This document shows positions 7,626 through 63,429 of a DNA stretch of 64,000 bases, piece after piece. The stretch comes from Ctenodactylus gundi. Lineage: Eukaryota. Made by a program: the position numbers and the translations under genes. Under the pieces are notes generated by a model that was not told the origin of the DNA, did not search any database, and worked only from the letters and a program-made list of their open reading frames with translations. The stretch is taken from assembly GCA_048771875.1 (NCBI GenBank), contig CM109696.1:72824529-72888528 (forward strand), in the 5' to 3' direction. The number at the start of each line of letters is the position of its first letter. Position 1 is the first letter of the stretch.

Positions 7626-7672
7626 TGAGCTGAGAAAAAAGTAAAGCCAGTAAACAACAGGGAAAAACTACA

Positions 7673-11176: not shown

Positions 11177-11597
11177 ACTGACCAGTGGATACACTAATTG
11201 TGATATTTATACACAACGGAATACTATGCATCAATAAAGCCCAACAATGTGCAGGCTTTTACAGGCAAATGGTAGAAACTTGAGAACATCATGCTTAGTG
11301 AAGTGAGTCTGAAGCATAATGTGAAATATCCAATGGTCTCTCTTATATGAGAGTCCCAGAGCACAACTCCTATGGAAATTAAAATGAAAAGCAAATTGAA
11401 ACAAGGGAGTTGGGTAGGGAGGAGGGAGGGAGGGGAGGGGAAGGGGAAGGACAGAAGAAGAGTGGGAAAACCCTTGTCACCTTGACAAGATACATATGTG
11501 CATAAAAGGCTCAACTCCATTGTAAACCTTAAATTTTGCACATATACATACCAATAAAATAGGGAAAAATGTCCGTGTTACTAAAAATTATATTATT

Positions 11598-11815
11598 GGG
11601 CTAGAGGAATAGCACAGTGGTTAAAGCACTTTCTAAGTGCAAGGCCCTCGGTTCAATTCCCTAGCACCACAAAAGCTGGGCGTGGTGGTACACACCTGTA
11701 ATCCCAGTACTTGGAAGGCTAAGGCAGAAGGCTAGCCATGAATTCAAGGCTAGCCTGCACTATATAGTGAGTTCAGGACAGTTCAGGACAGTTCAGGACC
11801 CTGGTTCAAAACGTA
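11598..11815 (+). mobile_element. ID–B1 composite SINE, followed by (TA)n
   Basis: gggctagaggaatagcacagtggttaaagcactttctaagtgcaaggccctcggttcaattccctagcaccacaaaagctgggcgtggtggtacacacctgtaatcccag. Confidence 0.75.
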
Positions 11816-11953
11816 TATATATATTTACAAATGTTTTATTAAATATGAGGAAAAAATGTAAACTTCTTAAGACTTTCTAAGGGTAAATATTACATATACA
11901 CAAATGATTTAAATTTGTTCTTAACTACACATAATTGACTCTTTTTTCCTTAG

Positions 11954-12155
11954 TGCACACACGTAATCTCAGACAATGCTGATTCTCTGAGTCAGTATCA
12001 ACTGAACTGTTTCCAAAAGAAGCACATCCTTATTGCAAACCCAAATTTTATATGGGAATCTGTCAAAGAAAGAAGACTCTTAGATGTGAAGAAGTATGAT
12101 CTTAACGAATCACTGGATGTCCCACCACTTCCTGATCAGAAAGCAAGCAGTTCTG
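11954..12155 (+). CDS. PARP4: PARP4 exon 3, encoding CTHVISDNADSLSQYQLNCFQKKHILIANPNFIWESVKERRLLDVKKYDLNESLDVPPLPDQKASSS
   Basis: Acceptor ttttttccttag|TGC and donor TCTG|gtaagt. The exon is 202 nt and ends in phase 1. It matches human CTHIILDNADVLSQYQLNSIQKNHVHIANPDFIWKSIREKRLLDVKNYDPYKPLDITPPPDQKASSS. Confidence 0.85.
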
Positions 12156-12645: not shown

Positions 12646-12890
12646 GGGGCTGGAGGAATGGCTCAGCTCTAGCAAGCGCTATGCAAGTGCTAAGTATCAA
12701 AGTTCAATTCCCCGGCACCCCATAAACTGGGCATGGGCCTGGTGGCACAGCCTGTAATTCCAGCAATCAGGAGGCTGATGCAGGCAGATTGTCCTGAGTC
12801 CAAGACCAAACTGCTCTACATAGTGAGTTCAGAACCAGCATGTGTGGGCTACAAAGTGAGAGAGACCCTGTCTCAAAAAAAAAAGTACAT
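12646..12890 (+). mobile_element. ID–B1 composite SINE
   Basis: ggggctggaggaatggctcagctctagcaagcgctatgcaagtgctaagtatcaaagttcaattccccggcaccccataaactgggcatgg ... gaccctgtctcaaaaaaaaaa. Confidence 0.75.
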
Positions 12891-16339: not shown

Positions 16340-16622
16340 TCTTTTCCCCCATTTTTATTAATATATATGCATATATATGTATATATATTCAGTACATAAT
16401 AGTTACATTGAGCTTGATTATTTTGTGCACATATGTTGCTTCAATATTACAATCCCTTCCCCTCACCCTTTTTGACTCTCCTGCTCCCTCCCCATCCCCC
16501 GTAACTTCCTCTATGGTTCCAATTTAGTTCTATAGAATGTCTCATATTAGAGAAACCATGTGATATTTAACCTTCTGCAGTTGACTCCCTTTAGTAAGTA
16601 TAATTTATTTTCAAAACTATGC
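16340..16622 (-). mobile_element. 5'-truncated L1 3' end (antisense)
   Basis: tttttattaatatatatgcatat...acataatagttacattgagc...gagaaaccatgtgatatttaaccttctg. The reverse complement of the 3'UTR of the full L1 at 11200-11597 is homologous. The same unit recurs at 17575, 18745, 49790 and 63430. Confidence 0.65.
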
Positions 16623-17574: not shown

Positions 17575-19070
17575 TGTTTTTGTTATTAAATGTTTGCAGT
17601 ACATAACAGTTACATTTCACTTGGAAAATAGGTGCATATACCCTACTGTGTTTTCATCATTTTTGCTTCTCTCTTCCATATTCTTTCCCCACATCACATT
17701 CCCATCTCCAGAGCCTACCTTTTTGCTTTTTTTTTTTCCTTTTCTCCTTTTTTTTTTTTTTTTTTTGAGTCAGGGTCTCACTCCATAGTCCAGGCTAGCC
17801 CTGAGCTCACTATGTAGACCAGGCTGACTTTGAACTCATGGCAATTCTCCACCCTCAGCCTCCTGAGTGCTGGGATTACAGGTGTGCACCACCATGCCCA
17901 CTCAGCCTACCTCTCCATTTTCTATCTTTCTTCAGTTATTTACATATTGGCCTTCTCATATAAGAGAAACAATGCAGTGTGTCTGATTATTTTATATAAA
18001 ATGATCTCAAGGTATGTCCATTTTCTTACAAATGACTCATTTATTCTCTTCTGTGGTAGAGTAGTACTCCATTTTATGTATATACCAATTTTATTTATCC
18101 ATCTGTAGATCAGTATGTCAACTACTATTGTAACTTGTGCCAGTATCACAAACAAACAAGCAATGCATCCTGTGTCACTTCAGTGTGACATCTTTAATTC
18201 TTTGGGAAAGATACCCAGAAAAGGTAGAGCTGGGTGAAATGGAATTTCTGTTCTCAGTTTTTTTCTACATACATAGTTGTTGTACAAGTTTTCAGTCCCA
18301 CCAACAGTGTGCAAGGAAAGGTTCCTTTTTTACCCCCACATCCTCTCCAGCGTTTGTTGTTTTGGGGGTTCTTGATGATAACTCTTCTTACTGAAATAAA
18401 ATGGAATCTCAGTGTTTGGGTTTGCATTTCTCTGAGGGCTAAAGATTGAACATTTTTTCGTGTATTTGTTGGCCATTTGTACATTTACTTTGAAGAAGTG
18501 CCTGTTCTAATTGCCCATTTTTCTATGTGGGTCATTAACTTTAGAGAGTCTTAATTTTTTTCAATTATTTTTGTATGTCCTAGATATCAGTCTTCTTTCC
18601 AGGAGGTAGATGGTAAACAGATATCTCTTTACTCTGTTGGCTGTTTTGTTTTCTTTTGCTGTGCAAGAGCTTTTTAATTCAATGTAATCCCATTGACTGA
18701 TTCTTGGTGTTAGCTCTTGTGCAATTGTTCTGTTCAAGAAGTCCTTGTCTGTTTTTTTTTTAATTTACATATCACCTTCATTTCCCCTTCCCACCCTAAG
18801 ACCTTCCCTTTCCCTCTCTACAAAATATCGTCTTACTTTCTGTATCTCTTACATTTTTTATGGTTTGGCTTTCTCATATTAGAGCAACGATGTGATATTT
18901 AATTTACTGGGTTTAATTCATTTCACTAAGCATAATGTTCTCAAGAAGCATCCATTTTCCTACAAACGACTCAAATTTATCATTTTTCTGGCACAGTAAT
19001 ACTCCATTTTGTATGTATATGATATCTTTATCCAGTCATCTATACTCGGTCATATTGGCTCCTTCCAGGA
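17575..19070 (-). mobile_element. Two adjacent 5'-truncated antisense L1 copies (17575-18735 reaching into the ORF2 C-terminus, and 18745-19070). A SINE is nested at ~17745-17890.
   Basis: L1 3'UTR homology is present. The reverse complement of 18150-18700 encodes L1 ORF2 C-terminal motifs (..CWRGCGGKKGTF..). The nested SINE reads ttttttgagtcagggtctcactccatagtccaggctagcc. Confidence 0.6.
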
Positions 19071-19071
19071 T

Positions 19072-19300
19072 TTTTTTGTTTGTTTGTTTGAGACAGGGCC
19101 TCACTCTGTACTCCAAGCTGGTCTTGAACTGACTGTGTAGCACAGACTGGCCTTAAACTTATGGCATGTGTAGCAATCTTCCTGTCTCAGCTTCCTGAGT
19201 GTTGGGACCACAGGCATGCACCACTGCTCCTAGCTTATACGAGGCTGGGAAGTCAATGCAGGGCCTTGAGATTTAACCTCTGAGCTATTCCTCCAGCCCT
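19072..19300 (-). mobile_element. ID–B1 composite SINE
   Basis: tttgtttgtttgagacagggcctcactctgtactccaagctggtcttgaactgactgtgtagcacagactggcc ... gagctattcctccagccc. Confidence 0.7.
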
Positions 19301-19380
19301 AGGGGAAATTAAAAAAAAAAAAATTCTCCCATTTAGTGTGATGTTGGCAATGGGTTACACATAAAAGGCTTTTATCAGTT

Positions 19381-22300
19381 TTTATATTTTTTGCTTTCAT
19401 TCTTTTATCTTTTATTCCCACTATATTTATTAATATACATATGTAATACATAGTATTTACAATGAATTTGAGTATTTTGTGCACATATGTATCATATCAA
19501 CTTTACAATCCTTTGCCATTTTTAACCCTCCCATCCCCTCCCTGTCCCTTCCCCCAACTCTGGCTATCACTTCATGTGGTTATAGAATGTCTGTGTTCTG
19601 GGTTTTCCAAGTCAGAGAAAACCTACAGTGTTTAACATATTATTCTTCTGTATCTAAATCATTTCACTTAAGTCACCACTCTAACTCAGCTTCCTGTTCC
19701 ACGAATGGGTCGCAGTAGTTAAATCTTGATGCCTCTTCTCTGAATCTAACCAATCCCTTTATTGGTATATTTGCCAGAAGTTTTTTTTTTCTATATTTTG
19801 CTATATCTTTGTTGCTATTCTTAAGCCTGGCTTTACCCATCAGTTCACATTAGAAAATAACTATAAGCATGTAGTTCAAAAGACTAGTAAATTTGGGAAA
19901 GAAGAAAAAAAAAGTTAAATTTCAAATGCCTTAGCAGAATACTAGAAGGTATATATTTGTACATTCACAGGGTTATCTTTACATCAGTCAGTTTTCTTAG
20001 GATAAATTTTCATCAGTGACCTAATAAGTGAATTGCTACAATAAAACAAAACTATACCACATTGCTACATTAAATGAACTTAAATCTATACCACATAAAT
20101 ATACTTAAAGTGACAGATATGAAGGCAAATCTAGTTATTTCAGAATTGTTTTAACTTTCATAACTTATTTACTCATGTTTCATTGATTACTAACATACTT
20201 TTTTCTCAGCTCATTCTCCTCTAGCTGTTGTCGCTTTTCGTCTGGGGTCATTGGTGTCGCTGGCCTCCCTTTCACTTTCTAAGTTTCCTTTAAATGTTCT
20301 CTGCAATACTGGCTCAGTGGCTGCAAATTCTTTCAAGCTTTCTATATCATGGAAAGTTTTAAGTTCTTCCTTTAAATTAAAAGATAATTTTGCTGGATAT
20401 AGCAGTCTTGGTTGGCATTTATGTTCTTTTAGTGCTTGGATGACATTGCTCCATGATCTCCTTGCTTTTAGAGTCTGGGTTGAGAAATCTGCAGTTATCC
20501 TGATGGGCTTATCTTTGTAGGTCACCTTTCTGTTTTTCTCTTACTGCATTTAATACTTTTTCTTTGTGTTGGGTTTCTAGAATTTTAATTATGATGTGTC
20601 GTGATGAGGATCTCTTCTGATCAAAGTTGTTTGGTGTTCTGTATGCCTGCAATAGTTCCATGTTCATTTCTTTCCTTAGATTTGGGAAATTTTCTTCAAT
20701 AATTTCATTAAACATGTCCTTTAAGCCTTTTGTTTTGTCCTCAGTCTTCTCCTCGATTCCCATAATTCTGAGGTTATTTCTCCTTGAATCATCTATCAGC
20801 CATTGTAATGATTTGCTTTCTTGTTTACTTTGTGTTCTTCATGGCCTGTATGTTGCAGCTCAGTCACTTTATTTTCTAGGTCTGACATTCTATTCTGAAG
20901 ATGTTTAATGTGGTTGCTTACTATTACCTGTGTGTTTTTCACTTCCTGAATATCTGCATTGAACTTTTCTATATCTCTGTTGTGTTCTTCTCTAATTTCT
21001 TGTATTGCCTTCATTATCTTCTGGTATATTTCTTCTATGATCTCCTCTTTTTGCTTCTCAAGGCTTGCCTTTTGCTTATCTGTGTGTTGGTGTAGCACTT
21101 GCGCTGTCTGTTTTATTTCCTGCTTTTATTCCTGCTTTAATTCAATGAATATCTGGGCTCAGAACTTACCATCATTTTTGCCCTTTTCCTCTTTGAATTC
21201 TGCAATTTCAGTATCCCTAGTACCATCTCCTGTGGTGTCAGATCTTTTTGTAGGAGATTTGTTACCACATTTCCCCATAGTTCTGCTATCTCTGGCTGTC
21301 TCTGGTGTGCAGGAAAGAAGGGTTTGACGAAAGCCCAGTCCTGGATGCCTCTGGAATCCTCTGGCCCAAGGGACAGACAGGGCCATGGAATTCCTGGTCC
21401 TAGATGCCTCTGCAATCCTCTGGGGCTCAGGATCGACAGGGTGATGTAATTGCCTGGAAGCCTCTGGCTCACGGGATGGATAGGCAATGGACTTCCCAGT
21501 CCTAGATTGCCTGTGGCGTGCAGGGCAGCGGTGAACTGGAAGCCTCTGGCGTGTGCCAGAGGAACAAGGCGATGGTCCCCCTTTTGAGGTGTCTTGTTCT
21601 CCCCGGTCCACTCAGCAAAGCTCTCCTTCTGTCCTGGCTTCCCTCCCCCAGAGCGGGGCTCTCCACCCTTGGAGCAGAGGTGCCCCTGAGCCATTCAGGG
21701 GATCAGCAGCCTTCTTTTCCCTCTTTTCTCCTCTCTCTGCCGCTTGTGGCATTTTCTTCCTAGGCACTATTTTAGGGTGACCCCAAAGCCCTGATGTGTT
21801 CTTCTGAGCTTTCTTTTACTCTAAAGGGTTCAGTCTTGGGCTTTTTTCCCACCTTCTTTTTAAAAATGGCTCCTGCTTACATCATTGCCTGTGATGGTTG
21901 CTGAGCCCTGTTTCTGATTTGGGATCCTGGGGCCTTTTGTAGGGGGAGTGCACGCAGTGTTTGTAGTACACACTACCCGTGGGTTGGTGTTTCAGAAGCC
22001 AGGGCCACTGGCTGCCGACAATTCCCATTTCTCTGTATCAGGCTGATGTTCTGGCTCCGGACTTTCCTCCGTCTGGTCTGTGAATGCTGGCAGCTCAGGG
22101 CCGGGCTGAGTTGGCTGCTATTTTCCTCCTCTTCAGATGTGACTTCAGGATATTTGATCCGCCCATAGCCTCCTGTCCATTGTTGGGGTGTTCCATCCAC
22201 TCCCAGCCCCGTCAGATGTCTCAGGCCCACACAAGGCTTCCTCCATCCACAGCTGCCTGCAGCTCCAGCTATTTGCAGCTGGTTGCAGCGGCTTCCTGGG

Positions 22301-22507
22301 CTGCTTGGATTTTTTTTTTTCTCTGCTTGCGATGTTCCTTCGGAATTTCTGACTTTCCCCTGGCCTCCTGTCATTTGTTGGAGATGCTTCTCTCTTTCCG
22401 AGCTACACTGACCACACTTTTTCTAACTAAATTCTCAACTTTTTAAGTGGGTCCATGAGGAGACATTGTGCAATGCTGTTACTCAGCCGCCATCTTGACC
22501 GGAAGTC
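19381..22507 (-). mobile_element. ORF1-only L1-derived retroelement (HAL1-like), copy 1. On the element strand it runs 5'UTR 22507..21269 with a ~55-60-bp tandem monomer array, then ORF1 from ~21268 to 20211 (frameshifted into four pieces), then a ~0.8 kb 3' region at 20210..19381. It has no ORF2.
   Basis: The - strand ORF pieces (MGKCGNKSPTKRSDTTGDG..., ..NNFDQKRSSSRHIIIKILETQHKEKVLNAVREKQK.., MTYKDKPIRITADFSTQTLKARRSWSNVIQALKEHKCQPRLLYPAKLSF..) are L1 ORF1p. The ORF1 stop is followed directly by a ~460-bp unique segment and then ~330 bp homologous to the L1 3'UTR. The 5' terminus reads ..gactcggtcaagatggcggctgagtaac (reverse complement). It is flanked by a 15-bp TSD: ggcttttatcagttt at 19366-19380 and ggcttgtatcagttt at 22508-22522. 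Confidence 0.7.
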
Positions 22508-22522
22508 GGCTTGTATCAGTTT

Positions 22523-23250
22523 GAGGTAAATCCCATCTGTACCGATTTTTATTAGAGTGTTTAATCACAAATGTTGGATTTTGCCAAAGACCTTCTTTGT
22601 GTCTCTGGAGATGATCTGTGATTTCTGGCCTGCCTTCTCTGTATTTGATGACTTACATTTTGTCATGATGTAGTATCTTAATGTTTTCTTGAATCATTGA
22701 TAACCTTAAGGATTTTTGCACCTGTATTCATTAAGGAAATTGGTCTATAGTTGTTTGTTATTATTGTTAAGTATTTGTCTGGTAATTTATTAAACAGGAT
22801 GTCTTTGTAATTGCCATAATGCACTTGCTGGAACTTTGTGTAGAACATGATCTGGCCTGCTTAAAATGTTGAGAAAACCTTAGAGCTGCTTCTCAAATGC
22901 TGGCTTGTCTGGGTAAGGAGTCACTTTATGAGTGAAACCCCTTATTTATTCCATTTGCTGCTTCCATACCATTGGCCTTCCCTCAGCACCAGCATTTCCT
23001 GATCATTGTTTATGCCACGCTGTTGGCCCTCTGTAGTTACATTATGTTAGCAGAGACAGAGCTGCTCGGGGAGCCAGGATTAGTGCCCAGATGCCTCTTT
23101 TTCCTCTCTGCTTTGTCTTTACTCTGCAGTTTTTCTGTGATTTCCAACTTCCCTGTTGCCTTTTCTTCATTCCTGGAACTCTTCGTTTTCCCTTCAGTGA
23201 GTTATTCAAATAGTTTTTGCAATGTTTTCACCTTTTTGGCCTATGAAGAG
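22523..23250 (-). mobile_element. Old antisense L1 ORF2 fragment, the target of copy 1's insertion
   Basis: The reverse complement of ..aaggatttttgcacctgtattcattaaggaaattggtctatagtt encodes NYRPISLMNTGAKIL, an L1 reverse-transcriptase motif. Confidence 0.55.
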
Positions 23251-32262: not shown

Positions 32263-32352
32263 GGGGTTGAGGTGTAGCTCAGTGACAAAGCACTCACCTA
32301 GTATGTGGGAGGTCCTGAGTTCTATCCCCAGCACTGCAAAAAGAAAAAAAAA
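32263..32352 (+). mobile_element. ID-type (tRNA-Ala/BC1-derived) SINE with A-tail. It is not a tRNA gene.
   Basis: ggggttgaggtgtagctcagtgacaaagcactcacctagtatgtgggaggtcctgagttctatccccagcactgcaaaaagaaaaaaaaaag. Confidence 0.65.
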
Positions 32353-34591: not shown

Positions 34592-36176
34592 TAACCATTA
34601 AGCTGCATCCCTAGCCCAGATTTTCTATTTTATACGTAAAAATGTATATAAGTTTCTTATTTTTTGGCTAGAGGATTTGAGTTGTAGAAAAACCTTTCCC
34701 GCACTAAAGTCTTGAAGATGTGAGGGAGTAGAGTGGCTCGTGCTGCCCCCAGTGTCTTCTTACTCTTACATGTTAAAGGAGCCAATTCATAGACTCACGT
34801 GATTTCCCTTATCCAGGTGCTGTGATCCCCACCCCAAGCCCCAGGACTGGGTAATAGACAGGGAGGTACTCTGGTTCCTTCTTAGGAAAGGGACTCATGC
34901 CTTATCACCTATAGTAGACATTTTGATTTTTGGTTCTGTTCTGTTTCTTTATTTTGTAGTGCTGGGAATTGAACCCAAGGCCTTACACAAACTAGACAAG
35001 CAATGTGCTACTGAAGTATATCCCCAGTCCTACAATAAGTATTTTAATGTGTAGGAGTACATTTTAACACAAGAACAAGGAGTATGCATAGTAAATATAT
35101 AAACCACTACCATAGTTGCTTATTATCATATATTATTCATAATCACATTGTTATATGTTTTCATTAACAAATACCAGTTGTACAGGTGGAAGGCAACTAT
35201 GACATCTGCACACGTGTATAATGCATGGACATGTCATCACTCTTAGCTAGGCTCTCCCTACCAGCCCCCATCCCCGTCCCTAAAAGTCTTATCAACTTCT
35301 TTCTGCCCCCCTTCATGTTTCCTTTCCCCATCTCTAATCACCCCACATAAAATGGCTATCATTAAAAGAGACAAGAAATAACAGATGGATTAAGAATGTG
35401 GAGAATTGGGAACACTGACATACTTGGTATGAGTGTAGATTAATATAGTAATTATGGAAAATAGTATAGAGATTTTTCAAAAAATGAAACTAGAGCTGGG
35501 TATGGTAGTGTACTCCTTTAATGCCGGATACTCGGGAGGTTGAGATGGCAAGTTCAAAGACAGCTTGGACAATTTAGATTCTGTCCAAAAAAAAAAAAAA
35601 AACTCCTATATAATCTAATAATTACACTACTGGGTTTATGTCCAAAGGAAGTGAGCTCCTTGGGCTGGGGAAATGGCATAGCGTTTAAAATGCTTGCCCT
35701 GAAAGTTCAAGGCCCTGAGTTCAGATCCCCACAATCACATAAAGCTGGGTGTGGTGGTGCACACCTGTAACCCCAGCACTCTGAAGTCCAAGGCCAGTCT
35801 GGGCTACTCAGTGAGGTCAGGACCACCCTGGACTACAGAGTGAGACCCTGTCTTCAAAAAAAAATTTAAAAAGGAAATGAACTCTTTATAGGAAAAAGGC
35901 ATCAATATTTATCTCAGCTCTCTTCACAGTAGCCAACATGTGTTGTTATTTCTTCATATGCCTGGAAGTATAGGAGGTGTGTTTATGCTGGCATCACCAC
36001 ATGTATGAGTAGTACTTTGCCTTGAGGTATTGTGATTATGGCTTTGATGTTGCTGGGAGATGGACATTTTTAGCTACATTATGATCTTCAGGAACCACTG
36101 TCACCATTGGAGTTCACCATTGACCCAGATGTCACTGTTGTTGCACAATGCCTGACATGTAGAGAACATGTAGTGA

Positions 36177-39100
36177 CTTTTTTCCCCACTGTTTTTATTA
36201 ATATACATATGTAATACATAGTGTTTACAATGAATTTGGGTATTTCATACACATATATATCATATTAATTTTACAATCCCTTCCCATATTTGACTCTCCC
36301 ACCATCTCCCTATCCTTTCCCCCAACTCCGGCTATCACCTCATGTGTTTCTATAGAATGTCTGTGTTCTGGGTTTTCCAAGTCAGAGAGACTGTACAGTA
36401 CTTAACATATTAATCTTCTGCACCTAAATCATTTCATTTAAGTCACCACTCTACCTCAGCTTCCTATTCCTCGAATGGGTTCACAGTCGTCAAATTTTTA
36501 TGCCTCTTCTCTGAATCCAACCAATCCCTTTATTGGGATATTTACCAAAAGTTTTTTTTTCTATATTTTGTAAATCTTAGTTGCTATTCTTAAACCTGGC
36601 CTTACCCACCAGTTCACATTAGAAAATAACTACAAGCATGTAGTTCAAAAGACTAGTAAATCTGGGAAAGAAGAAAAAAAAAGTTAAATTTCAAATGCCT
36701 TAGCTGAGTACTGGAAGGTACATGTTTGTACATTCACAGGGTTATCTTTACATAATCAGTTTTCTTAGGATAAATTTTCATCAGTGACCTACTAAGTGAA
36801 TTGCTACAGTAAAACAAAGTTAAAACTATATCACATTGCTACATTAAATGAACTTAAGTCTATACCACATAATTATACTTAAAGTAACAGATATGAAGGC
36901 AAATTTAGTTATTTCAGAATTTTTTAACTTTCATAACTTATTTACTCACACTTCACTGATTACTAACATTCTTCTAGGTTTGGTTTATAATTTAATCTGT
37001 CTATCCATCCATATATCTGTGCATTTATATTCTTAAGAGATTTTATGTCAGTTCCCCATGTTGCATTATTAATTATTTTATTTTACACACTACTATTATA
37101 ATAATAATGTAAGGAGATTTCACAGATTTTATAGAAGAACTGGTACTATTTTAAAAGTATATCAATCAGATGATTTAATTCCCAGTCTATTTTTTATTAC
37201 ATTTTCTCTTTAGATGTTACCTTTCCTCCAAGCTGTTTCGGTGCTGCTTATGTTTCTGCCTCTCAAAGAGGATAACCTCACATTCAACATCAAAAAAGTG
37301 AATTGCCTCATTCAACAAGCTGAAGACTTTATCAATTTGCTACATTAAATGGACTTACATCTGTATCACATAAGTGTGCTATATAGTTAAAGCAATAGAT
37401 AAATAGCTATGCTCAGTTATTTCGGATTTTTTTGACTTTCATACAATGATTACTCATATTTCACTAATTAACATTTTGCCCTATTTGGTTTTTCCTTTTA
37501 CCTATCAATTTGTCCCTAATTTCATGCAAAGCCTTACTTTTTTTCTCAGCTCATTCTCCTCTAGCTGTTGTTGCTTTTTCTCTGGGGTCATTGGTGTTGC
37601 TGGCCTCACTATCCTTTAAGTATTCTCTGCAATACTGGCCTAGTGGCTGCAAATTCCTTTAAGCTTTCTATATCATGGAAAGTCTTAATTTTACCCCTTA
37701 AATTAAAAGATAATTTTGCTGGATATAGCAGTCTTCGTTGGCATTTATGTTCTTTTAGTGCTTGGATGACATTGCTCCATGATCTCCTGGTTTTTAGAGT
37801 CTGGGTTGAGAAGTCTGAGAGTTATCCTGATGGGTTTATCTTTGTAGGTCACCTTCTGTTTTTCTCTTACCTCTTTTAGTATTTTCTTCTTGTTTTGGGT
37901 TTCTAGTATTTTAATTATGATGTGTCATGATGAGGATCTCTTCTGATCAAAGTTGTTTGGTGTTCTATATGCCTGCAATAGTTCCATGTTCATTTCTTTC
38001 CTTAGATTTGGGAAATTATCTTCCATAATTTCATTAAATATGTCCTAAACACCTTTTGTTTTGTCCTCAGTCTTCTCCTGTACTCCCGTAATTCTAGGGT
38101 AGTTTCTCTTTGAATCATCTATTAGCCGTTGTTTTTTTGTTGTTGTTGTTTTACTTTGTTTTTCCCCCACTATTTTTATTAATATACAAAAATAATACAT
38201 ATTATTTACAATGAATTTGGGTGTTTTGTACATCTATGTATCACATCGACTTCACAATCCCTTCCCATCTTCTGCCCTCCCACACCCTCCCTGTTCCTTC
38301 CCCTGGCTCCAGCTATCACTTCATATGGTTCCAAAGAATGTCTGTGTTCCTGGTTTTCCAAGTCCGAGAAACCATACGGTAACCATACGGTGTTTAACAT
38401 ATTAATCTTCTACACCTAAGTCATTTCACTTAAGTCAGCACTCTACCCCAGCTTCCTATTCCTCGAATGGGTTCGCAGTAGTCAAATCTTGATATCTCCT
38501 CTCTGAATCCAGCCAGTCCCTTCATTGGGATATTCACCAAAAGTTTTATTTCCACATTTTCCTACATCTTTGTTGTTATTGTTAAACCTGGCCTTACCCA
38601 CAAGTTCACACTAGAAAATAATTATAAGCATGTAGTTCAAAAGGATAGTTAATTTGGGAAAGAAGAAAAAAATAATAAATAAATAAATTTCAATTGCCTT
38701 AGCTGAATGCTGGAAGGTGCATGTTTGTACATTCACAAGGTTATCTTTGCATCAGTCAATTTTCTTAGGATAAACTTTAATTAGTGACCTAATAAGTGAA
38801 TTGCTACAACAAAACAAAGTTAAAACTATATCACATTGTTACATTAAATGAACTTAAATCTGTACCACATAAATATACTTGAAGTGACAGACATGAAGGC
38901 AAATCTAGTTATTTTCGAATTTCCTAACTTTCATATCTTATTTACTCATATTTCACTGATCACTAACATACTTTGTTCTTAGCTCCTTCTCCTGTAGCTG
39001 TTGTCACTTTTCCTCTGGGGTCATTGGTGTCACTGGTCTCCCTTTCACTGTCCAAGTTTCCTTTAAGTATTTTCTGCAATACTGGCTCAGTGGCTGCAAA

Positions 39101-40909
39101 TTCCTTTAAGCTGTCTCTGTCATGAAAAGTTTTAAGTTCTCCCTTTAAATTAAAAGATAATTTCACTGGATATAGCAGTCTTGGTTGGCATTTATGTTCT
39201 TTTAGTGCTTGGATGACATTGCTCCGCAATCTCCTTGCTTTTAGAGTTTGGATTGAAAAATTTGCCATTATCCTGATGGGTTTATCTTTGTAGGTCACCT
39301 TCTGTTTTTCTCCTACTGCTTTTTGTATTTTCTCTTGCTGTTGGGTTTCTAGAATTTTGATTATGATGTGTCATGATGAGGATCTCTTCTGATCAAAGTT
39401 GTTTGGTGTTCTATATGCCTGCAATAGTTCCATGTTCATTTCTTTTCTTAGATTTGGGAAATTGTCTTCCATTGTATCATTAAACATGTCCTTTAAGCCT
39501 TTTGTTTTGTCCTCAGTCTTCTCCTGGATTCCCATAATTCTGAGGTTATTTCTCCTGGAATCATCTATCAGCCGTTGTAATGATTCGCTTTCTTTATTTA
39601 CTTTGTATTCTTCATGGCCTGTATGTTGCAGCTTAGTCACTTTATTTTCTAAGTCTGCCATGCTATTCTGAAGTTGTTTAAAGTGGTTGCTTATTATCAC
39701 CTGCATGTTTTTCATTTCCTGAATATCTGCATTCAATTTTTCTATATCTGTATTGTGTTCTCCTCTAATTTCTTCATTATCTTCTGGTATATTTCTTCTT
39801 TGGTCTCCTCTTTTAGCTTTTCAAGGCTTGCATTTTGCTTAGCTATCTGTTGGTATAGCTCTTGTGCTGTTTTATTTCTTGTTTTATTTCCTCCTTTAAT
39901 TCAATGAATTTCTGGGCCCAGAAGTTACCATCATTTTTGCCATTTTCATCTTTAGATTCTGCAATGTCTAGGGTGTCAGGTCTTTTTGATTGATTGGCTG
40001 AGTTTTTGGAGAGTTTTAATTTTTGAGACAGGGTGCTCTGTATCCCAGGCTGGCCTTGAACATGTAGCACTTATCCTGGTTCAGCCTCTCAAATACTGAG
40101 ATTACAGTCATGTGCCACCACACCCAGCTTATGTGGTGCTGGGGAATCAAACCCAGGACCTTGTGATTACTAGGCAAGCTCTCCAACCACTGAGCTACGG
40201 CCCCAGCAGTGTCAGGTCTTTTTGTAGGAGATTTGTTACCACGTTTCCCCATGGTTCTGCTATCTCTGGCTCTCTCTGGTGCACAGGAAGGAAGGGTTTG
40301 GTGAAGGTGCATTCCTAGATGCCTGTGGAATCCTCTGGCCCAAGGGACAGACAAGGCAATAGAATTTCTGGTCCTAGATGCCTCTGGAGGCCTCTGGGGC
40401 TCAGGATTCACAGGGTGATGTAATTCCCTTGAAGCCTCTGGAAGCCTCTGATTCACGGGATGGATGGGCGATGGACTTCCTGGTCCTAGATGCCTCTGGC
40501 ATGCAGGGCAGCAGTGAACTGGAAGCCTCTGAAGCACGCCAGAGGAACGGGCCAGTGATCCCCCTTTTGGGGTATCTTGTTCCCCCTGGTCCACTCAGCA
40601 AAGCTCTCCATCTCTCCTGGCTTCCCTCCCCCAGGGCAGGGCTCTCCACCCTCTGAGGTGCCCCTGAGTCGTTCAGGGGATCAGCAGACTTTTTCCCCTC
40701 TTTTCTCCTCTTTCTGCCTCATGGGTCAGTTTCTTCCTAAGCACTGTTTAAGGGTGACCCCAAAAGCCCTGATGTACTCTTCTGAGCTCCTCTCTTTCCT
40801 AGCTACGTTGAACATGCATTTTCTAATTAAATTCTTGACTTTTTAAGTGGGTCGATAACAAGACCTTGTGCAGCTCTGTTCCTCAGCTGCCATCTTGGCC
40901 GAAAGTCCA
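36177..40909 (-). mobile_element. Dimeric HAL1-like ORF1-only L1 derivative. Copy 3 is full (element strand 5'UTR 40909.., ORF1 ~40240..38963, 3' region ..38160). It is followed by an A-rich linker and then copy 2, which is 5'-truncated (partial ORF1 38131..37545, 3' region ..36177, with an internal ~420-bp insertion/partial duplication at ~36950-37370).
   Basis: The - strand ORFs 38963..39298 (MTYKDKPIRIMANFSIQTLKARRLRSNVIQALKEHKCQPRLLYPVKLSF..), 39371..39736 and 40016..40594 are ORF1p. The same 3' region seen in copies 1 and 4 is present. A single 14-bp TSD, agaacatgtagtga, occurs at 36163-36176 and 40910-40923. Confidence 0.7.
40017..40207 (-). mobile_element. ID–B1 SINE nested inside ORF1 of HAL1-like copy 3, with its own TSD
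   Basis: ttttgagacagggtgctctgtatcccaggc ... ctctccaaccactgagctacggccccagc. It is flanked by gtgtcaggtctttttg at ~39973 and ~40210. Confidence 0.65.
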
Positions 40910-41029
40910 AGAACATGTAGTGATTTTTAAAGCAAAATTGAAGTCTAATGACTTGGGATCCCCTTTAGTCAGTATCCCTCCTCACTGTAGGATTGTGAAC
41001 TGATTAAACTTGTCCAAACCTCTCCCTTC

Positions 41030-49789: not shown

Positions 49790-50300
49790 TTTAAAACATA
49801 TTTATTTTCTCTATTCTTCTTAGTATATATGTGATATACAGTGATTCAGTTGAGTTGAGAACTTGTGCAGATACATATTGGGTCAATTTCACAATCCCTT
49901 CGCTTCCCCCATTTTTGTCCTCCCCTACCCCATCCCCCTCTAACTCCCAACAATTTCATCCACTCGACTCCATTATTTATTTGTATTCTGGGTTTCTTAC
50001 GTTAGAGAAACCATGTGATATTTAACCTTCTGAATCTCATTTCACAAAGCATGATGGTCTTAAGTTGTGTCTATTGACCTACAAATGCCTTGAATCTGTC
50101 GGTCTTTATGGTGGAGTAGTACTCCACTGTGTGCATGTCACACATTTTTTTGTAGCTGTTAGTCTATTGCTGAATGTTTCAGCATCTTCCACAATTTAGC
50201 TGTGCTGCTGTAAACACCTGAATCTCTGTTATATGTTGCTTTTAACTCTTTAGGAAAGATATCCAGAAGAGGTATCCATGGATCAAATGGAATATTTATT
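49790..50300 (-). mobile_element. 5'-truncated antisense L1 3' end. An antisense ID–B1 SINE follows at ~50315-50524.
   Basis: ..ttagagaaaccatgtgatatttaaccttctgaatctcatttcacaaagcatgatggtcttaagttgtgtc.., as in the other L1 3' fragments. Confidence 0.6.
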
Positions 50301-51072
50301 TTGACCTTTTATTCTTTTGAGATAGCATTCACTCTGTAGCCCAGGCTGGTCCTAAACTCACTGTGTAGCATAGGCTGGTCTCAAACTCACAGCAATCCTC
50401 CTGCCTCAGCCTCCCAAGTGTTGGGATTACAGGTATTGGCCACCATGCCTGGTTTATGTGTTGCTGGAGAATTGAATTGCACTTGTTAGACAAGCGCTTT
50501 ACCACTGTGTCATTCCTCCAGCCCATATTTTTGGCTTTTTGAGGAATCTCCATACTGCTTTTCATAGTGGTTGTAAGCTGATGATATTTTAATGGCAGGC
50601 AGAGCTCTGCTCATGCTCAAGCCTTGGTATCCTCAGGGAATTTCTTCTCAGACAACCTCATATATGAAAATGTTTAGATGCACACAAGTCTTATGTAAAA
50701 TGTTGTAGTATTTGCATAGAACTTGTATAATTGTTTCTATATTCATCAAATTATCGCTAGATGACTTAATGCAATGTGAATACCATGTGAATAGCTGTTA
50801 TGCCATATTGTTTAGGAAATGGTAACTGGAAAAAAAAGTCTGGTCTGGAAAAAAAAAAGTCTGGTTTGTACATGTTCAGTGGAGATAAACTTATTTTTTC
50901 AACAATTTTCAGCTCATGTTTGATTGAATCCACAGATAGGGAACCCACATATCCACGGGGCCAATTGTCCCTTGATGTGCATTTTTAATTAATACCTGTC
51001 GGCTGCAATTATGAGGCTATAATAAAAGATTCCTTTTTATGGCAAATCATTATAATACTTTTCCTTTTTCAG

Positions 51073-57439: not shown

Positions 57440-58054
57440 TAATCTTTTAATGATTTACTGCATTCTGTTTGTAAGTATCTTTTTAAAGATGTTTACATCT
57501 ATGAGCATTAAGAAAACTGGGCCTATTGTTTTCTTTATTGTTGAGTCTTTGTTTGTTTGTGGTGATAGGTTATGCTTGCCTTTGAGGAACAGTCTAAGCA
57601 TTGTATTTTCCCTTTAGATTTCCTGGAAGCATTTGACAAGTGTTCTGATAATCAGCAGTGACTCTCTTAGGACCTGAGCTTCTCTTAATTGGTATTTTTA
57701 AAAATTACTGCCCCATTTTATTGCTGGTTGTTGGTTTATTCAGGATTTTCACATCTTCTTGATTCAGTTTTGGTACATATGTGGCTAGAAATTTATTTTC
57801 AGTTTATTACAACAGAAGTGTCCAGAGTAGTTCCTTTGGCTCTCAACACTGTTCGTTGATTTCACCTATTTTGTTTCTAATTGCATTGGCAGGGACTTTT
57901 GTTTCCTTCTTTTGGTAAGTTTAGCTATAATGTTATTTGTTCTTGATCTTGTTAATCTTTTCAAAGAATTAGCTTCACTATCTGTTGATATTTTGTATTG
58001 TTTCCTTTTGGTCTTGTCTCATTTCTGTTGGCAGTCCTTTTAATGTCTTCCCTT

Positions 58055-58085
<31 letters not shown>

Positions 58086-58654
58086 GAGATGGTCTCTGTG
58101 TGTAGCCCCAGGCTAGTCCTGATCTCACTATGTAGCCCAGGCTGGCCTTTGGCTTCTGGCAATCTTCCTGCTTCAGTCTCCCAAGTGCTGGGATCACAGG
58201 TGTGTGCCACCATGTCCAGCTTTCTGTGGTGCCGAGGAATCAGCTCAAGAGGGCCCTGTGCTTGCATGGCAAGCACTTTAACCTCTGTACTGGCCCTGTC
58301 TCCCCTTTCTTTAGTTTAGGGTTTATATTTTTCTTGTTTTTCTAGCACCTTGAGCTGAGTCATTATGTTGTTTATTTAGGATTGCTATATTCTTTTTGTT
58401 TCTTTTTTGTTTGTTCTAGTGTAGAAATTTACTATTCCTAAGAGAGGCTTGCCTTCATAGCTTACTTACTGTTTCTTCCTGACAGCATCTGGTATTCTTT
58501 TAGTGCTAGATACCTGGAATTTTATCATGATGTGATGGGGAGGTTCTGTTTTGGCCATGTATATGTGGGGTTCAGTAATCCTTGTTTACCTGAATGTTCA
58601 CTTCTTTTTCTGTTTTTGAATATATTTCTGCTGCAGTTTCAGCAAGTGAGCTTT
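57440..58654 (-). mobile_element. Old antisense L1 ORF2 fragment. It continues at 61443-61800 and 62027-62190. An ID–B1 SINE at 58057-58304 and HAL1-like copy 4 are inserted into it.
   Basis: Antisense L1 ORF2-like text is present: ..tttagatttcctggaagcatttgacaagtgttctgataatcagcag.., ..ttttcaaagaattagcttcactatctgttgatattttgtattg.. and ..gtagaaatttactattcctaagagaggcttgccttcatagc. Confidence 0.5.
58057..58304 (-). mobile_element. ID–B1 composite SINE with T27 head
   Basis: T27 then gagatggtctctgtgtgtagccccaggctagtcctgatctcactatgtagcccaggctggcc ... ggcaagcactttaacctctgtac. Confidence 0.75.
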
Positions 58655-61427
58655 ATTTCCCCACAATTTTTATTAATATACAAATGTAATACATAGTATT
58701 TACAATGAATTTGGGTGTTTCGTACATCTATGTATCACATCGACTTCACAATTCCTTCCCATCTCCTACTCTCCCACCTCCTCCCTGTCCCTTCCCCCAG
58801 CTCCAGCTATCACTTCATATGGTTCCAAAGAATGTCTGTGTTCTGGGTTTTCCAAGTCCGAGAAACCATACGGTGTTTAACATATTAATCTTCCACGCCT
58901 AAATCATTTCACTCAAGTCACCACTCTACCCCAGCTTCCTATTCCTCTAATAGGTTCACAGCAGTCAAATCTTGATATCTCCTCTCTGAATCCAACTAAT
59001 CCCTTCATTGGGATATTCACCAAAAGTTTTTTTTTCCACATTTTCCTACATCTTTGTTGTTATTGTTAAACCTGGCCTTACCCACCAGTTCACACTAGAA
59101 AATAATTATAAGCATGTAGTTCAAAAGACTAGTTAGTTTGGGAAAGAAGAAAAAATAATAAATAAATAAAATTCAGTTGCCTTAGCTGAATGCTGGAAGG
59201 TGCATATTTGTACATTCACAAGGTTATCTTTACATCAATCAGTTTCCTTAGGATAAACTTTCATTAGTGACCTAATAAGTGAATTGCTACAACAAAACAA
59301 AGTTAAAACTATATCACATTGCTGCATTAAATGAACTTAAATCTATACCACATAAATATACTTAAAGCAACAGACATGTAGGCAAATCTGGTTATTTCTT
59401 AATTTCCTAACTTTTATATCTTATTTACTCATACTTCACTGATTACTAACCTACTTTTTTCTCAGCTCCTTCTCCTGTAGCTGTTGTCACTTTTCCTCTG
59501 GGGTCATTGGTGTCACTGGTCTCCCTTTCACTGTCCAAGTTTCTTTTAAGTATTTTCTGCAATACTGGCTCAGTGGCTGAAAATTCCTTTAAGCTTTCTC
59601 TGTCGTGGAAAGTTTTAAGTTCTCCCTTTAAGTTAAAAGATAATTTTGCTGGATATAGCAGTCTTGGCTGGCATCTATGTTTTTTAGTGCTTGGATGATA
59701 TTGCTCCACGATTTCCTTGCTTTTAGAGTTTGGATTGAAAAATCTGCCATTATCCTGATGGGCTTATCTTTGTAGGTCACCTTCTGTTTTTCTCTTACCG
59801 CTTTTAGTATTTTCCCTTTGTGTTGGGTTTCTAGAATTTTAATTATGATGTGTTGTGATGAGGATCTCTTCTGATCAAAGTTGTTTGGTGTTCTATATGC
59901 CTGCAAAAGTTCCATGTTCATTTCTCTTCTTAGATTTGGGAAATTTTCTTCCATTATTTCATTAAACATGTCCTTTAAGCCTTTTGTTTTGTCCTCAGTC
60001 TTCTCCTCGATTCCCATAATTCTGAGGTTATTTCTCCTGGAATCATCTATCAGCCGTTGTAATGATTCACTTTCTTTATTTACTTTGTATTCTTCATGGC
60101 CTGTATGTTGCAGCTTAGTCACTTTATTTTCTAGGTCTGCCATGCTATTCTGAAGTTGTTTAAAGTGGTTGTTTATTATTACCTGTGTGTTTTTCATTTC
60201 CTGAATATCTGCATTGAATTTTTCTATATCTCTGTTGTGTTCTTCTCTAATTTCTTGTTTTGTCTTCATTATCTTCTGGTATATTTCTTCTCTGGTCTCC
60301 TCTAGCTGCTTTTCAGGGCTTGCCTTTTGCTTATCTATGTATTGGTGTAGCTCTTCTGCTGTCTGTTTAATTTCCTGCTTTAATTCCTTTTTTAATTCAC
60401 TGAATTTCTGAACCCAGAAGTTGCCATCATTTTTGCCATATTCATCTTTATTTACCCTGACTTCATCTCCTGGGGTTTCAGGTCTTTTTGTAGGAGAATT
60501 GTGCCTGCGCTTCCCCAATTCTTCTTTGGTCTCCTCTAATTCCTTTTCAAGGCTTGCTTTATGCTTAGCTAAGTGTTCTTGTAGTTCTCGCACTGTCTGA
60601 TTTATTTCCTTCTTTGCTTCCTGGTTTAATTCCTCCTTTAATTCCTGCTTTAATTCACTGACTATCTGGGCCCAGAGATTGCCATCATTTTTGTCCTTTT
60701 CTTTGGGTTTTGCAATTTCAGCACCCCTTGCACCCTCCCCTGGGGAATCAGATCTTTTTGTGTAAGATTTGTTACCACATTTCCCCATAGTACTGCTACC
60801 TCTGACTGTCTCTGGTGCGCAGGAAAAGTGAATGGCTCCTGCTGACGTCACTGCCTGTGATGGCTGTTGAGTCTCGTTTCTGATCTGGGATCCCGGGACC
60901 TTTTCTAGGGGGAGCGCACACTGCAGTTGTAGTACACACACCCACCAGTTGATGCTTCTGAGGCTGGGTCCACCCGCAGCCAGTGATTCCCACTAGTCCG
61001 GATCCGCGCTTACCTGGTGCTGAGGTTCTGGCCTCCGAACCTTGTTTATGATCTGTGGGTGCCGGCAGCGTAGGGCCGTGCTGAGTCAGCTGCTTCTGAC
61101 CTGCCCACAGCCTCTTGTCCCGTTGTTGTGTGCTCCATCCTCTCCAGCTCCATACAGTCAGATGTTCAGGTGCCCGAGAGCTTTCCTCTGGGAGCCGTTT
61201 GCAGCCAGCTGCGGCGGCTATCTGGACCACAGCGATTTTTTTTACCCCCTCTGGTTTTGATGATCCTTCGGAGTTTCTGGCCTCCTACTGGTCACCTTTC
61301 AGTTTCTGGGGATGCACCTCTCTTTCCTAGCTATACTGAACATGCAACTATCTTCTTGACTTTTTAAGTGAGTTGATGAGGAGACTTTGTGCAGTGCTGT
61401 TACTCAACCGCCATCTTGACCGGAACC
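58655..61427 (-). mobile_element. ORF1-only L1-derived retroelement (HAL1-like), copy 4, best preserved. On the element strand it runs 5'UTR 61427..60789 (no monomer array), ORF1 from 60788 (or from 60941 if the upstream in-frame Met is counted) to 59631, then a ~0.8 kb 3' region at ..58655. It has no ORF2.
   Basis: A perfect 15-bp TSD, cagcaagtgagcttt, occurs at 58640-58654 and 61428-61442. The 5' terminus (reverse complement) reads ..gtcaagatggcggttgagtaac. The 3' region has the same two parts as in copies 1 to 3, with a short A-rich end (..aataaaaattgtggggaaat). Confidence 0.8.
59628..60941 (-). CDS. L1 ORF1p-like ORF of 437 aa within HAL1-like copy 4. It has a coiled-coil N-terminal part with an internal ~90-aa tandem duplication, a central RRM-like part, and a C-terminal frameshift.
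   Basis: The translation reads ..MGKCGNKSYTKRSDSPGEG..KNDGNLWAQIVSELKQELKEE.. and a second unit LGKRRHNSPTKRPETPGDE..KNDGNFWVQKFSELKKELKQEIKQ.. It then reads ..RLIDDSRRNNLRIMGIEEKTEDKTKGLKDMFNEIMEENFPNLRREMNMELLQAYRTPNNFDQKRSSSQHIIIKILETQHKGKILKAVREKQKVTYKDKPIRIMADFSIQTLKARKSWSNIIQALK. A 1-bp deletion near 59705 replaces the canonical EHKCQPRLLYPAKLSF.. tail. That tail is still readable in another frame as ORF 59446..59709. Confidence 0.7.
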   Translation of the reverse strand: MCVLQLQCALPLEKVPGSQIRNETQQPSQAVTSAGAIHFSCAPETVRGSSTMGKCGNKSYTKRSDSPGEGARGAEIAKPKEKDKNDGNLWAQIVSELKQELKEELNQEAKKEINQTVRELQEHLAKHKASLEKELEETKEELGKRRHNSPTKRPETPGDEVRVNKDEYGKNDGNFWVQKFSELKKELKQEIKQTAEELHQYIDKQKASPEKQLEETREEIYQKIMKTKQEIREEHNRDIEKFNADIQEMKNTQVIINNHFKQLQNSMADLENKVTKLQHTGHEEYKVNKESESLQRLIDDSRRNNLRIMGIEEKTEDKTKGLKDMFNEIMEENFPNLRREMNMELLQAYRTPNNFDQKRSSSQHIIIKILETQHKGKILKAVREKQKVTYKDKPIRIMADFSIQTLKARKSWSNIIQALKNIDASQDCYIQQNYLLT

Positions 61428-61800
61428 CAGCAAGTGAGCTTTTTAAGATTTTAGCTTAATATTCTAATTTTTCATTTACTCTTATGATTCTGAGGATTTT
61501 TGAATCATCTAGTTGTTGGATCTAGCCTCCTTGTTGACTTGCTGATTTTATATGATTCATAGCTTCATCTTTGTCTTCAGTTTTTAAGGTTCTATCCCTG
61601 TGTCAGTTACTCAGTTGCCCATAACTTTCCACTGAGGTTTTCATCACCTGGATTCCTCTTGGTGTCTTCATATTTTCTAATTGTTTGCTCATATTGGTTA
61701 CTCACATCTTGTCTTGGTTAGCTCTGCCATCATACTACTTGTGTCTTTCATCTCACTGACTGTTTAATCTGTTTAATTATATCCTCCCTAAGTTCACTAC

Positions 61801-62026: not shown

Positions 62027-63429
62027 CATTAAACATTTTAAGGAAGTGGTTTCATTCTCCTTTAACTCCTCAAGCATTTCCACCATTTGGCTTTTGAGAT
62101 TTCTCTGGTTCATTTCTCTTCTATCTCCATTTAATTAATTAGCCTTTGGTGAGTTAGGGACTTTGGGGACCATCTTGTTGGCTTGGGTTTTTTTTATTTC
62201 TTTGTTTTGTTTTTGAGACAAGGTCTTGCTCTGTAGTCCAGGCTGGTCCTGAATTCAATCTGTAGCCAGGCTGGCCTCTAACTCATGGCAGTCCTCCTGT
62301 TTTAGCCTCACAGTGCTGGGAGTATTGGGATTACAGGCTGCATGGTGTTATAGTGGTACTCAGATACTGCTTTGCAAAAAAGAGAACAATTTATCCTGTT
62401 GTATCAATTTATGCAGAACCAACCATATTCCAGTCATATTGTTTAAGGCTTGTTTTGACAGTTTTAATTTTTTTCCTTGATAACCTGGGAAATTGGTGGA
62501 TTGGTGCCCGATACCAATAGGACCGGGTATAGAGGATAACAATAGAAGTGAGGGTCAAGAATGGAGAGAAAGTAGTGTAGAGAAGAGGGAAGAAGAAATT
62601 AGAGGTAGCCACAGGACAGATATTATAACTACCAGTTGAAAATTTGTGTTTGATTCCTCCATACACAGTTTATGGTGGGGATCACCCTGTTTAGTCCATG
62701 ACAAGTACTTTTCATTTTAAAGCACTGATGGGTTTTTATTCTCTACCTTATGCAAACACCTCACATGTAAGAGATAAAGAGAAAAGGAAAAAAAGAAAAC
62801 AAAAAAGAAAGAGGAAATAACAAGGGAAGAAGGAAAGATTGTTTTCCTTTTTTAAGTTGCACACATCTTCACACTGACACTTATAGGATGAGTTTCTTCC
62901 AGGCACGCGGTTTGCTTCGGGTAACCTCTGCAGTGTTTTGCAGTTATACAATCAGGATTAGTCTGGTGTTTTTGTCTCTGTTCTTTCATTGGTGTTTAAC
63001 AGGTTCAGGTGAGTGGTTAGAGAGAGCTGGTCAGTTGTATGGTCCTCTACTGGCCTTTGTGGGAGAGAGGACTTATTTCATAGACCCTCCTGTCAGTGGA
63101 AATGCTTAAATTGCCTAAATCTGTGCTGCTGAGATTGAGCATGTGGAGTCAGTCTAGCTCTGTGATGACCCTTCTCCTAGATTCTTCATCCAGCCTATGA
63201 TTTCAGTGGGTGAGGATCCCTCTGCTTGGAATGTAGCCAAGTCCAGGAGCCAGTGGCAGTATGTTCCACAGGTTCCTAGTTTGTCTGTAATTAGTGGCCA
63301 GTGTGTTGTAAGGCAAATGAGCAAAACAGGAATAAATGCTTGCCACCCAAAGCGAGCGGTTTAAAAAAGTCTTGGGTGAGAGAAATGGCTCAGCTGTTAA
63401 ATGCTTACTTTTTTTGTTCGGTAGTGTTT

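Follow-up and report, generated by a model that had tools for sequence, protein, structure and literature searches.

The stretch of Ctenodactylus gundi DNA analysed here (64,000 nucleotides of contig CM109696.1, positions 72,824,529 to 72,888,528; hereafter the window) harbours four copies of an element derived from LINE-1 (long interspersed element 1, L1), which retains the first open reading frame of L1 (ORF1) and lacks the second (ORF2). We interpret these copies as members of a lineage-specific, non-autonomous retrotransposon family of the HAL1 ("half-L1") type in a rodent genome, and assign this interpretation a probability of about 0.85. The features of HAL1-type elements are present, i.e., an L1 ORF1 coding for a coiled coil, an RNA recognition motif (RRM) and a C-terminal domain (CTD), no ORF2, insertion hallmarks of the L1 type, and a structure shared over four copies. 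An ORF2 protein (ORF2p) with endonuclease and reverse transcriptase, by which an autonomous LINE-1 is recognised, is missing. The element class is well known, and the family is at most another member of it, not a new class.

A self-BLAST with positions 58640-61442 as query recovered homologous stretches at 19411-22504, 36172-38132 and 38159-40904, and resolves four copies from three insertion events, all in minus-strand sense and the same orientation. Copy 4 occupies 58655-61427 (-) and is flanked by target-site duplications (TSDs). Copy 1 (19382-22507, -) is full-length with 3.1 kb, possesses the longest 5' untranslated region (5'UTR), composed of the modules A, B and C described below, and ends in an A-rich tail of 32 nt (19382-19413, -). 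Copy 3 (38164-40909, -) is likewise full-length and has the architecture of copy 4, while copy 2 (36182-38132, -) belongs to the subfamily of copy 1 and is 5'-truncated inside ORF1, from about codon 244. The full-length copies measure 2.75-3.1 kb, and the position of the 5' terminus and its starting box are common to all three of them. The flanking DNA differs among the three events. An earlier reading made from the sequence only (the sequence-only reading) had also counted four copies from three insertion events, which the self-BLAST, the separate flanks and the separate TSDs bear out. It had delimited copy 4 correctly and set the start of copy 1 one base away from 19382. Its view that all copies have the same architecture holds for the junction and the modules they share, but not for copy 2, which is truncated and contains an additional ~570 bp.

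The junction between the ORF1 stop and the downstream region is identical in 4/4 copies of a four-way alignment (alignment A1), with the same stop codon and the same sequence after it. As this junction is identical while the flanks differ and every event has its own TSD, we regard the copies as one ORF1-only family rather than as independently deleted L1s. If ordinary full-length L1s had inserted and each had later lost a large internal part, they would share with our copies the absence of ORF2, but nothing else. Independent deletions would vary in their breakpoints and add no shared sequence, whereas here the breakpoint is identical and followed by the same ~520-bp non-L1 sequence in all four copies. 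Deletion at different breakpoints, which the sequence-only reading had named as a possible refutation of its own proposal, is therefore itself refuted by alignment A1, and we attach a vanishingly small probability to it. The same alignment separates two subfamilies, copies 4 and 3 versus copies 2 and 1, which are distinguished by diagnostic substitutions and indels along their whole length. Identity in the non-coding modules is 92% within and 87-88% between subfamilies (92.3% for the post-ORF1 modules of copies 3 and 4), and pairwise Kimura two-parameter (K2P) distances of 0.08-0.15 place the copies 8-15% apart.

All three events are bounded by TSDs. Copy 4 is flanked by CAGCAAGTGAGCTTT at 58640-58654 (3' side) and again at 61428-61442 (5' side in element orientation), with 15/15 identical positions. 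The repeats of copy 1 match at 14/15 positions, with GGCTTTTATCAGTTT (GGCTTtTATCAGTTT) at 19367-19381 on the 3' side and GGCTTGTATCAGTTT (GGCTTgTATCAGTTT) at 22508-22522 on the 5' side. Copies 3 and 2 lie together between a single pair of repeats with an 18/19 match, AGAACATGTAGTGACTTTT at 36163-36181 (3' side) and AGAACATGTAGTGATTTTT at 40910-40928 (5' side), following the pattern AGAACATGTAGTGA[C/T]TTTT. Among 20,000 random site pairs in the window, each allowed a slop of +-10 nt on both sides, matches of at least 14/15 occurred in 8 and of 15/15 in 4; all three events reach the level of at least 14/15. The claim that every event is bounded by a TSD is consequently upheld above the random-pair control.

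The flanks of copy 1 offer an empty-site test within the window. Copy 1 splits old L1 ORF2 remnants at 18174-19381 and 22508-22753 (-), the basis of this control, and both of its flanks align to a paralogous L1 ORF2 segment (9360-9490), in which the 15-mer occurs once. The reconstructed empty site aligns continuously across the junction to this paralogous L1. The single copy of the 15-mer that the sequence-only reading had expected at a true empty site has thereby been shown for copy 1. Because the flanks differ, the TSDs are significant and copy 1 has a paralogous empty site, we conclude that the three insertions are independent. Three loci that lie within 42 kb in the same orientation might alternatively stem from one defective L1 locus that was copied by segmental duplication or gene conversion. 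However, the loci have unrelated flanking sequences, separate TSDs adjoin the element termini precisely in each event, copy 1 resides inside an old L1 that is continuous across the reconstructed empty site, the tails differ, and the divergence of 8-15% displays a subfamily structure, all of which renders this explanation extremely improbable.

The inferred nick sites, GTGATTTTT/AAAGC, CAGTTT/GAGG and GAGCTTT/TTAAG (for copy 4, GAGCTTT/TTAAGA on the plus strand), are all T-rich on the primer side. The L1 endonuclease has the consensus TTTT/AA, likewise T-rich on the primer side, and the site of the event that comprises copies 3 and 2 (...GTGATTTTT/AAAGC) fits this consensus. A-rich tails of 31-32 nt are found on copies 1 and 3.

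The composite formed by copies 3 and 2 provides insight into the mode of insertion. Under its one TSD, the region 36182-40909 consists of the full-length copy 3 with its tail (38133-38163, -; 31 nt, sense AAAAACAAAGTAAAACAACAACAACAAAAAA), followed by the 5'-truncated copy 2. The tail directly adjoins the truncated 5' end of copy 2 with no TSD between them. The partners have the same orientation and come from different subfamilies, copy 3 being allied with copy 4 and copy 2 with copy 1. A sequential, nested insertion was considered for this dimer and rejected, since a second insertion would leave its own TSD, and copy 3 has none. Most likely, the composite arose by a template switch, when the reverse transcriptase, in the course of one event of target-primed reverse transcription (TPRT), left a first HAL1-like RNA and continued on the poly(A) end of a second one. 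The mechanism of such switches has been discussed (bioRxiv 10.1101/2025.02.02.635956). Chimeric insertions of L1 (U6/L1 and Alu/L1) display the same layout, in which a full-length upstream RNA with its tail is joined to a 5'-truncated element under one TSD (bioRxiv 10.1101/2025.02.02.635956). They join a small RNA to L1, however, whereas here both partners are HAL1-like RNAs of two subfamilies. The sequence-only reading had treated the dimer, placed at 36177-40909, as one event; the single TSD agrees with this, and the termini are 36182 and 40909.

Downstream of ORF1, copy 4 contains 790 nt of non-coding sequence with an AATAAA signal 14 nt from the 3' end. The first part (58918-59445, -) consists of ~10 nt of L1 inter-ORF spacer and then ~520 bp of AT-rich (32% GC) non-coding sequence. 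The second (58655-58917, -) resembles an L1 3'UTR and includes a G-rich polypurine tract (~58754-58799) and the AATAAA (58669-58674). L1 homology ends ~7-10 nt past the ORF1 stop, within the inter-ORF spacer; in the resident L1 of the window, the ATG of ORF2 follows about 25 nt further on. This resident L1 (6514-11570, +) is decayed and consists of an ORF1 with at least 4 stops (6529-7656), ORF2 fragments up to 11176 and a 3'UTR of ~394 bp.

Neither Pfam matches of any kind in the three sense frames downstream of the copy 4 ORF1 stop nor similarity to the resident L1 ORF2 in tblastx searches of the post-ORF1 region on both strands were found. The absence of ORF2 from every copy, as claimed from the sequence, is in agreement with these negative Pfam and tblastx results, with nhmmer and with an element length of 2.75-3.1 kb; the same tblastx comparison supports the earlier statement that the post-ORF1 segment bears no similarity to ORF2. 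An nhmmer profile of the post-ORF1 region matches three L1 3' ends in the window (11295-11559, +; 16346-16586, -; 49811-50045, -; E = 9e-17, 3e-19 and 9e-14, respectively) with its positions 536-790, i.e., the last ~255 positions, a part that contains the poly(A) signal and the G-rich polypurine tract. Outside the family, positions 1-535 of the profile have no nhmmer match in the window. The homology of the last part of the element to an L1 3'UTR is thus corroborated, although the proposed module sizes of ~460 and ~330 bp have to be replaced by about 535 and 255 bp.

Comparisons with both strands of the resident L1, made with DNA, with translations and with profiles, revealed no source of the ~520-bp module. 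As the element has no Rfam match at the gathering threshold or at E <= 1, the AT-rich module is not a recognisable small-RNA capture. It may be a foreign sequence or a fast-evolving proximal 3'UTR of a parent L1 that lies outside the window.

Precise ORF2-deletion or spliced-L1 products, similar to spliced integrated retrotransposed elements (SpIREs), form an alternative in which the copies would be remade from full-length L1 RNA and the ~520-bp module would be the proximal 3'UTR of a young parent L1 outside the window. L1 homology indeed stops in the inter-ORF spacer beside GTAA motifs, which are possible splice donors, and rat RNHAL1 has been described as an L1 that lost ORF2 by deletion (PMC2241872). 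Moreover, the 3'UTRs of L1s evolve rapidly; those of the window can be aligned with one another over no more than their last ~255 bp, and the resident L1 3'UTR is equally unmatched over its first ~118 bp. The L1 3'UTRs in the window, however, are only ~340-400 bp long versus 790 bp after ORF1 here. Two subfamilies that share the junction and have diagnostic differences along their whole length fit a descent from ORF1-only masters, and the probable purifying selection on ORF1 between copies (see below) points in the same direction. We therefore consider such splicing or deletion products unlikely, and favour a family propagated from ORF1-only elements.

Further observations concern the same region. 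In copy 2, an extra ~570 bp (36973-37539, -) separate the ORF1 stop from the normal post-ORF1 module. Over its first ~200 bp this segment is 70% identical to the start of the post-ORF1 module (nhmmer E = 4e-24), and the remaining ~290 bp match nothing; the segment may represent an older module variant or a second recombination. Other L1 3' ends in the window are located at 16346-16586 (-) and 49811-50308 (-), and the copy 4 region lies between two old pieces of L1 ORF2 (57639-58001 and 62094-62207, -). Exact scans with a family-specific 24-mer and a 27-mer from the L1 3' end yielded zero matches in metagenome contigs, viral contigs and prokaryote genomes.

The ORF1 of copy 4 (59446-60788, -) comprises 447 codons and is interrupted by one 1-nt deletion near 59682, with no in-frame stop; in blastx it is accordingly spread over two frames. 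It matches the Pfam families Transposase_22 (PF02994, 1.5e-20) and Tnp_22_dsRBD (PF17490, 7.3e-16). The ORF1 of the family is 76-78% identical at the nucleotide level to the resident L1 ORF1 (6529-7656). Among the proteins of a 5.8-billion-protein set none is near-identical to ORF1, the best matches being 47-53% for the full length and 58-62% for the C-terminal half. The remaining copies are in worse condition, with 2 frameshifts and at least 3 stops in copy 1, a truncated ORF1 with 2 frameshifts and 3 stops in copy 2, and at least 2 frameshifts, 1 stop and an inserted short interspersed element (SINE) in copy 3. The nearly intact ORFs noted by the sequence-only reading are hence a property of copy 4, with its one frameshift, but not of copies 1, 2 and 3, in each of which ORF1 is broken by two or more frameshifts and by 1-3 or more stops.

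The ratio of nonsynonymous to synonymous substitutions (dN/dS) was estimated for the C-terminal two-thirds of ORF1 in the six pairs of these four decayed copies (Nei-Gojobori method, Fisher test). It ranges from 0.36 to 0.51 in 6/6 pairs (P = 0.0003-0.047), in comparison to 0.51-1.03 in the two shifted control frames. Within the limits of so small a sample, these sequence comparisons are suggestive of an origin of part of the inter-copy divergence in source elements with a constrained ORF1 protein (ORF1p), and values below 1 fit an ORF1-dependent life cycle. Intact ORF1 domains in copy 4 and a dN/dS below 1 might also be expected from a host gene family derived from L1 ORF1, such as L1TD1. But host genes are difficult to reconcile with multiple dispersed copies that possess TSDs, A-rich tails and L1 UTRs, with the disruption of every copy, and with the antisense position of all copies within introns of PARP4 (see below). 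Domestication is thus highly improbable compared to a retrotransposon family.

Two structural peculiarities of ORF1 may be mentioned. The first ~91 codons of the copy 4 ORF1 constitute a divergent, in-frame repeat of the following N-terminal and coiled-coil segment (60285-60443 vs 60519-60701, 70% identity). A recent tandem duplication was rejected as its source, as the units are 70% identical, whereas copies 4 and 3 are ~91% identical elsewhere. The 5' block of copy 4 joins the family ORF1 at codon 2 with the reading frame kept, so that the N-terminus and coiled coil appear duplicated. In copy 3, a dimeric ID-B1 SINE (tRNA-like head plus B1; ~39988-40212, -) is inserted after codon ~17 of ORF1. 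Since this SINE sits inside copy 3 with its own 16-bp TSD (CAAAAAGACCTGACAC), the ID-B1 family was active after the insertion of copy 3.

The 5'UTR of copy 4 (60789-61427, -) has a length of 639 nt and a GC content of 54%, begins with GGTTCCGGTCAAGATGGCGGTTGAGTAACAGC and contains 22 CpGs (observed/expected ratio 0.47, compared to 0.28 in copy 1 and 0.17 in copy 3). At a distance of 10 nt from the 5' end of copy 4 it bears a YY1-like box, CAAGATGGCGG (61408-61418, -). L1 5'UTRs of murine rodents are built of monomers, unlike the 5'UTR here, which opens with this box. We take CAAGATGGCGG to resemble the YY1 box at the 5' end of human L1. The role of the latter has been described (PMC11602158).

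The 5'UTRs of the three full-length copies (copy 1, 21279-22507; copy 3, 40253-40909; copy 4, 60789-61427) are mosaics of three modules, with A+B+C in copy 1, A+B in copy 4 and A+C in copy 3. Module A (~120 nt), which includes the YY1-like box, opens all of them. The 5' ~910 nt of copy 4 (60518-61427, i.e., the 5'UTR and the first 91 codons) show an identity of only 67-76% to copy 1 (21030-22507), compared to 87% in the remainder. This drop in identity suggests that the 5' module of copy 4 may have been swapped in by recombination with another L1 or HAL1 lineage.

Taken together, the elements allow a mode of propagation to be outlined. RNA polymerase II would start at the L1-type internal promoter with its YY1-like box at nt 10-20, and the shared 3' termini show that the transcript ends about 14 nt past the AATAAA of the L1-derived 3' end. 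It encodes ORF1p only, with coiled coil, RRM and CTD, and this protein would presumably coat its own RNA in cis. Because the family has no endonuclease and reverse transcriptase of its own, ORF2p would have to act in trans; provided by co-resident autonomous L1s, it would nick T-rich targets and copy the RNA by TPRT. We infer the last step from the TSDs of 15-19 bp, the A-rich tails and the T-richness of the nick sites, together with the 5' truncation of one copy and the template-switch composite. These hallmarks suit ORF2p of L1 acting in trans, and the HAL1-like reading with trans-mobilisation by L1 that had been proposed from the sequence stands. The family would trace back to an L1 with ~520 bp of AT-rich non-coding sequence in place of, or as the remainder of, everything between the inter-ORF spacer and a point midway through the 3'UTR, and would subsequently have split into at least two subfamilies with ORF1 under purifying selection.

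As regards age, all four copies in the window are now dead. The sequences indicate that the family was active over an extended period and that copy 4 is its youngest insertion, while nothing shows present-day activity. The recent activity postulated by the sequence-only reading is consequently restricted to copy 4, with its single frameshift and its CpG observed/expected ratio of 0.47, and does not extend to a family with K2P distances of 0.08-0.15 and three badly broken ORF1s.

Several points weigh against our interpretation. It is based on four copies in one 64-kb window. Copy 4 has no visible poly(A) tail beyond the AAA that it shares with its TSD. The dN/dS signal is modest, and one control frame goes down to 0.51 for two pairs. 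The ~520-bp module could be the proximal part of the 3'UTR of the parent L1 itself. Finally, the 5'UTR has no match in a full-length L1 of the window. As the resident L1 (6514-11570) lacks a 5'UTR, the L1 origin of this region is deduced from its position, its composition and the YY1-like box.

The passage on HAL1 in PMC5753468, which cites Smit 1999 and Bao & Jurka 2010, characterises HAL1 as a non-autonomous L1 derivative that codes for ORF1p only and has several independent origins in mammals. Rat RNHAL1, with ~7500 copies, was concluded to be still propagating (PMC2241872). It is likewise a lineage-specific, ORF1-only family of a rodent, and retains the 5'UTR and ORF1 of contemporary L1 (PMC2241872). 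The 5' 2.6 kb of RNHAL1 are 98% identical to active rat L1, however, while the C-terminal half of ORF1 in our family is at most 58% identical to rat ORF1 proteins, from which we conclude that the two families are not the same. The guinea-pig families HAL1-1E/G/H_Cpo and HAL1-3D_Cpo and the marmoset family HAL1-1C_Cja, which arose independently, rank with the youngest repeats of the respective genomes (PMC3183009). They represent the same concept and class of architecture, in a comparison by description only, by which identity with our family is neither shown nor excluded. The ancient HAL1, HAL1b and HAL1M8 also code for ORF1p only (PMC5753468) and have a poly(A) tail and flanking TSDs (PMC5322556). 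The ancient HAL1 predates the mammalian radiation, whereas our copies are 8-15% apart and their ORF1 is 76-78% identical at the nucleotide level to that of a resident rodent L1; this low divergence and the resemblance to a resident L1 argue for an independent and much younger origin.

An experimental proxy exists in ORF1mneoI, an L1 5'UTR-ORF1 mRNA that has been likened to rat HAL1. In cultured cells, this ORF1-only L1 RNA undergoes retrotransposition if ORF2p is provided in trans, and it requires functional ORF1p (PMC11260458). ORF1mneoI is an artificial construct, in contrast to the element described here, which is known from its sequence alone.

HAL1-type elements are natural experiments on the contribution of ORF1p and on the access of non-L1 RNA to ORF2p. 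A further independent, young family in rodents would be one more replicate of a recurrent evolutionary route, and could supply near-intact ORF1-only elements for trans-mobilisation assays. The loci should be annotated as a non-autonomous L1 derivative and not as truncated L1s. Three events in 64 kb are a hint of possible abundance, and repeated renewal of the 5' region is suggested by the heterodimer, the chimeric structure of copy 4 and the mosaic organisation of the 5'UTRs. In a more far-reaching and rather doubtful scenario, a rodent lineage other than Muridae, Cricetidae and Sciuridae would possess a HAL1 family that is uncatalogued and possibly abundant, in which ORF2 was replaced by a captured, non-L1 module of ~520 bp and in which the 5' promoter and the ORF1 N-terminus were repeatedly renewed by recombination or template switching with other L1 or HAL1 RNAs. 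We regard this scenario as tentative.

The host locus can be named from a single coding exon. The exon at 11950-12153 (+) has splice-site-like borders and encodes the BRCT domain of PARP4, aligning to residues 45-111 of human PARP4 (PDB 11jf_P, E = 4e-25); as a query against the 5.8-billion-protein set it found no match. Based on this exon we assign the window to the 5' part of a rodent PARP4 gene (+), in the introns of which the HAL1-like copies are antisense. SINEs (B1, ID and ID-B1) are very densely spaced, and BLAST detects roughly 70 copies of them in the 64 kb (e.g., 11597-11790, 12646-12860 and 32268-32339), and the abundance of B1 and ID-B1 SINEs indicates a rodent host. One of them, the ID-B1 SINE at 11597-11790, follows the resident L1, and the only Rfam tRNA match (32268-32339) corresponds to the head of an A-tailed, ID-like SINE. 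Positions 1-2000 of the window, which precede the PARP4 exon, are GC-rich (53% vs ~40% elsewhere) and may contain the CpG-island promoter and first exon of PARP4.

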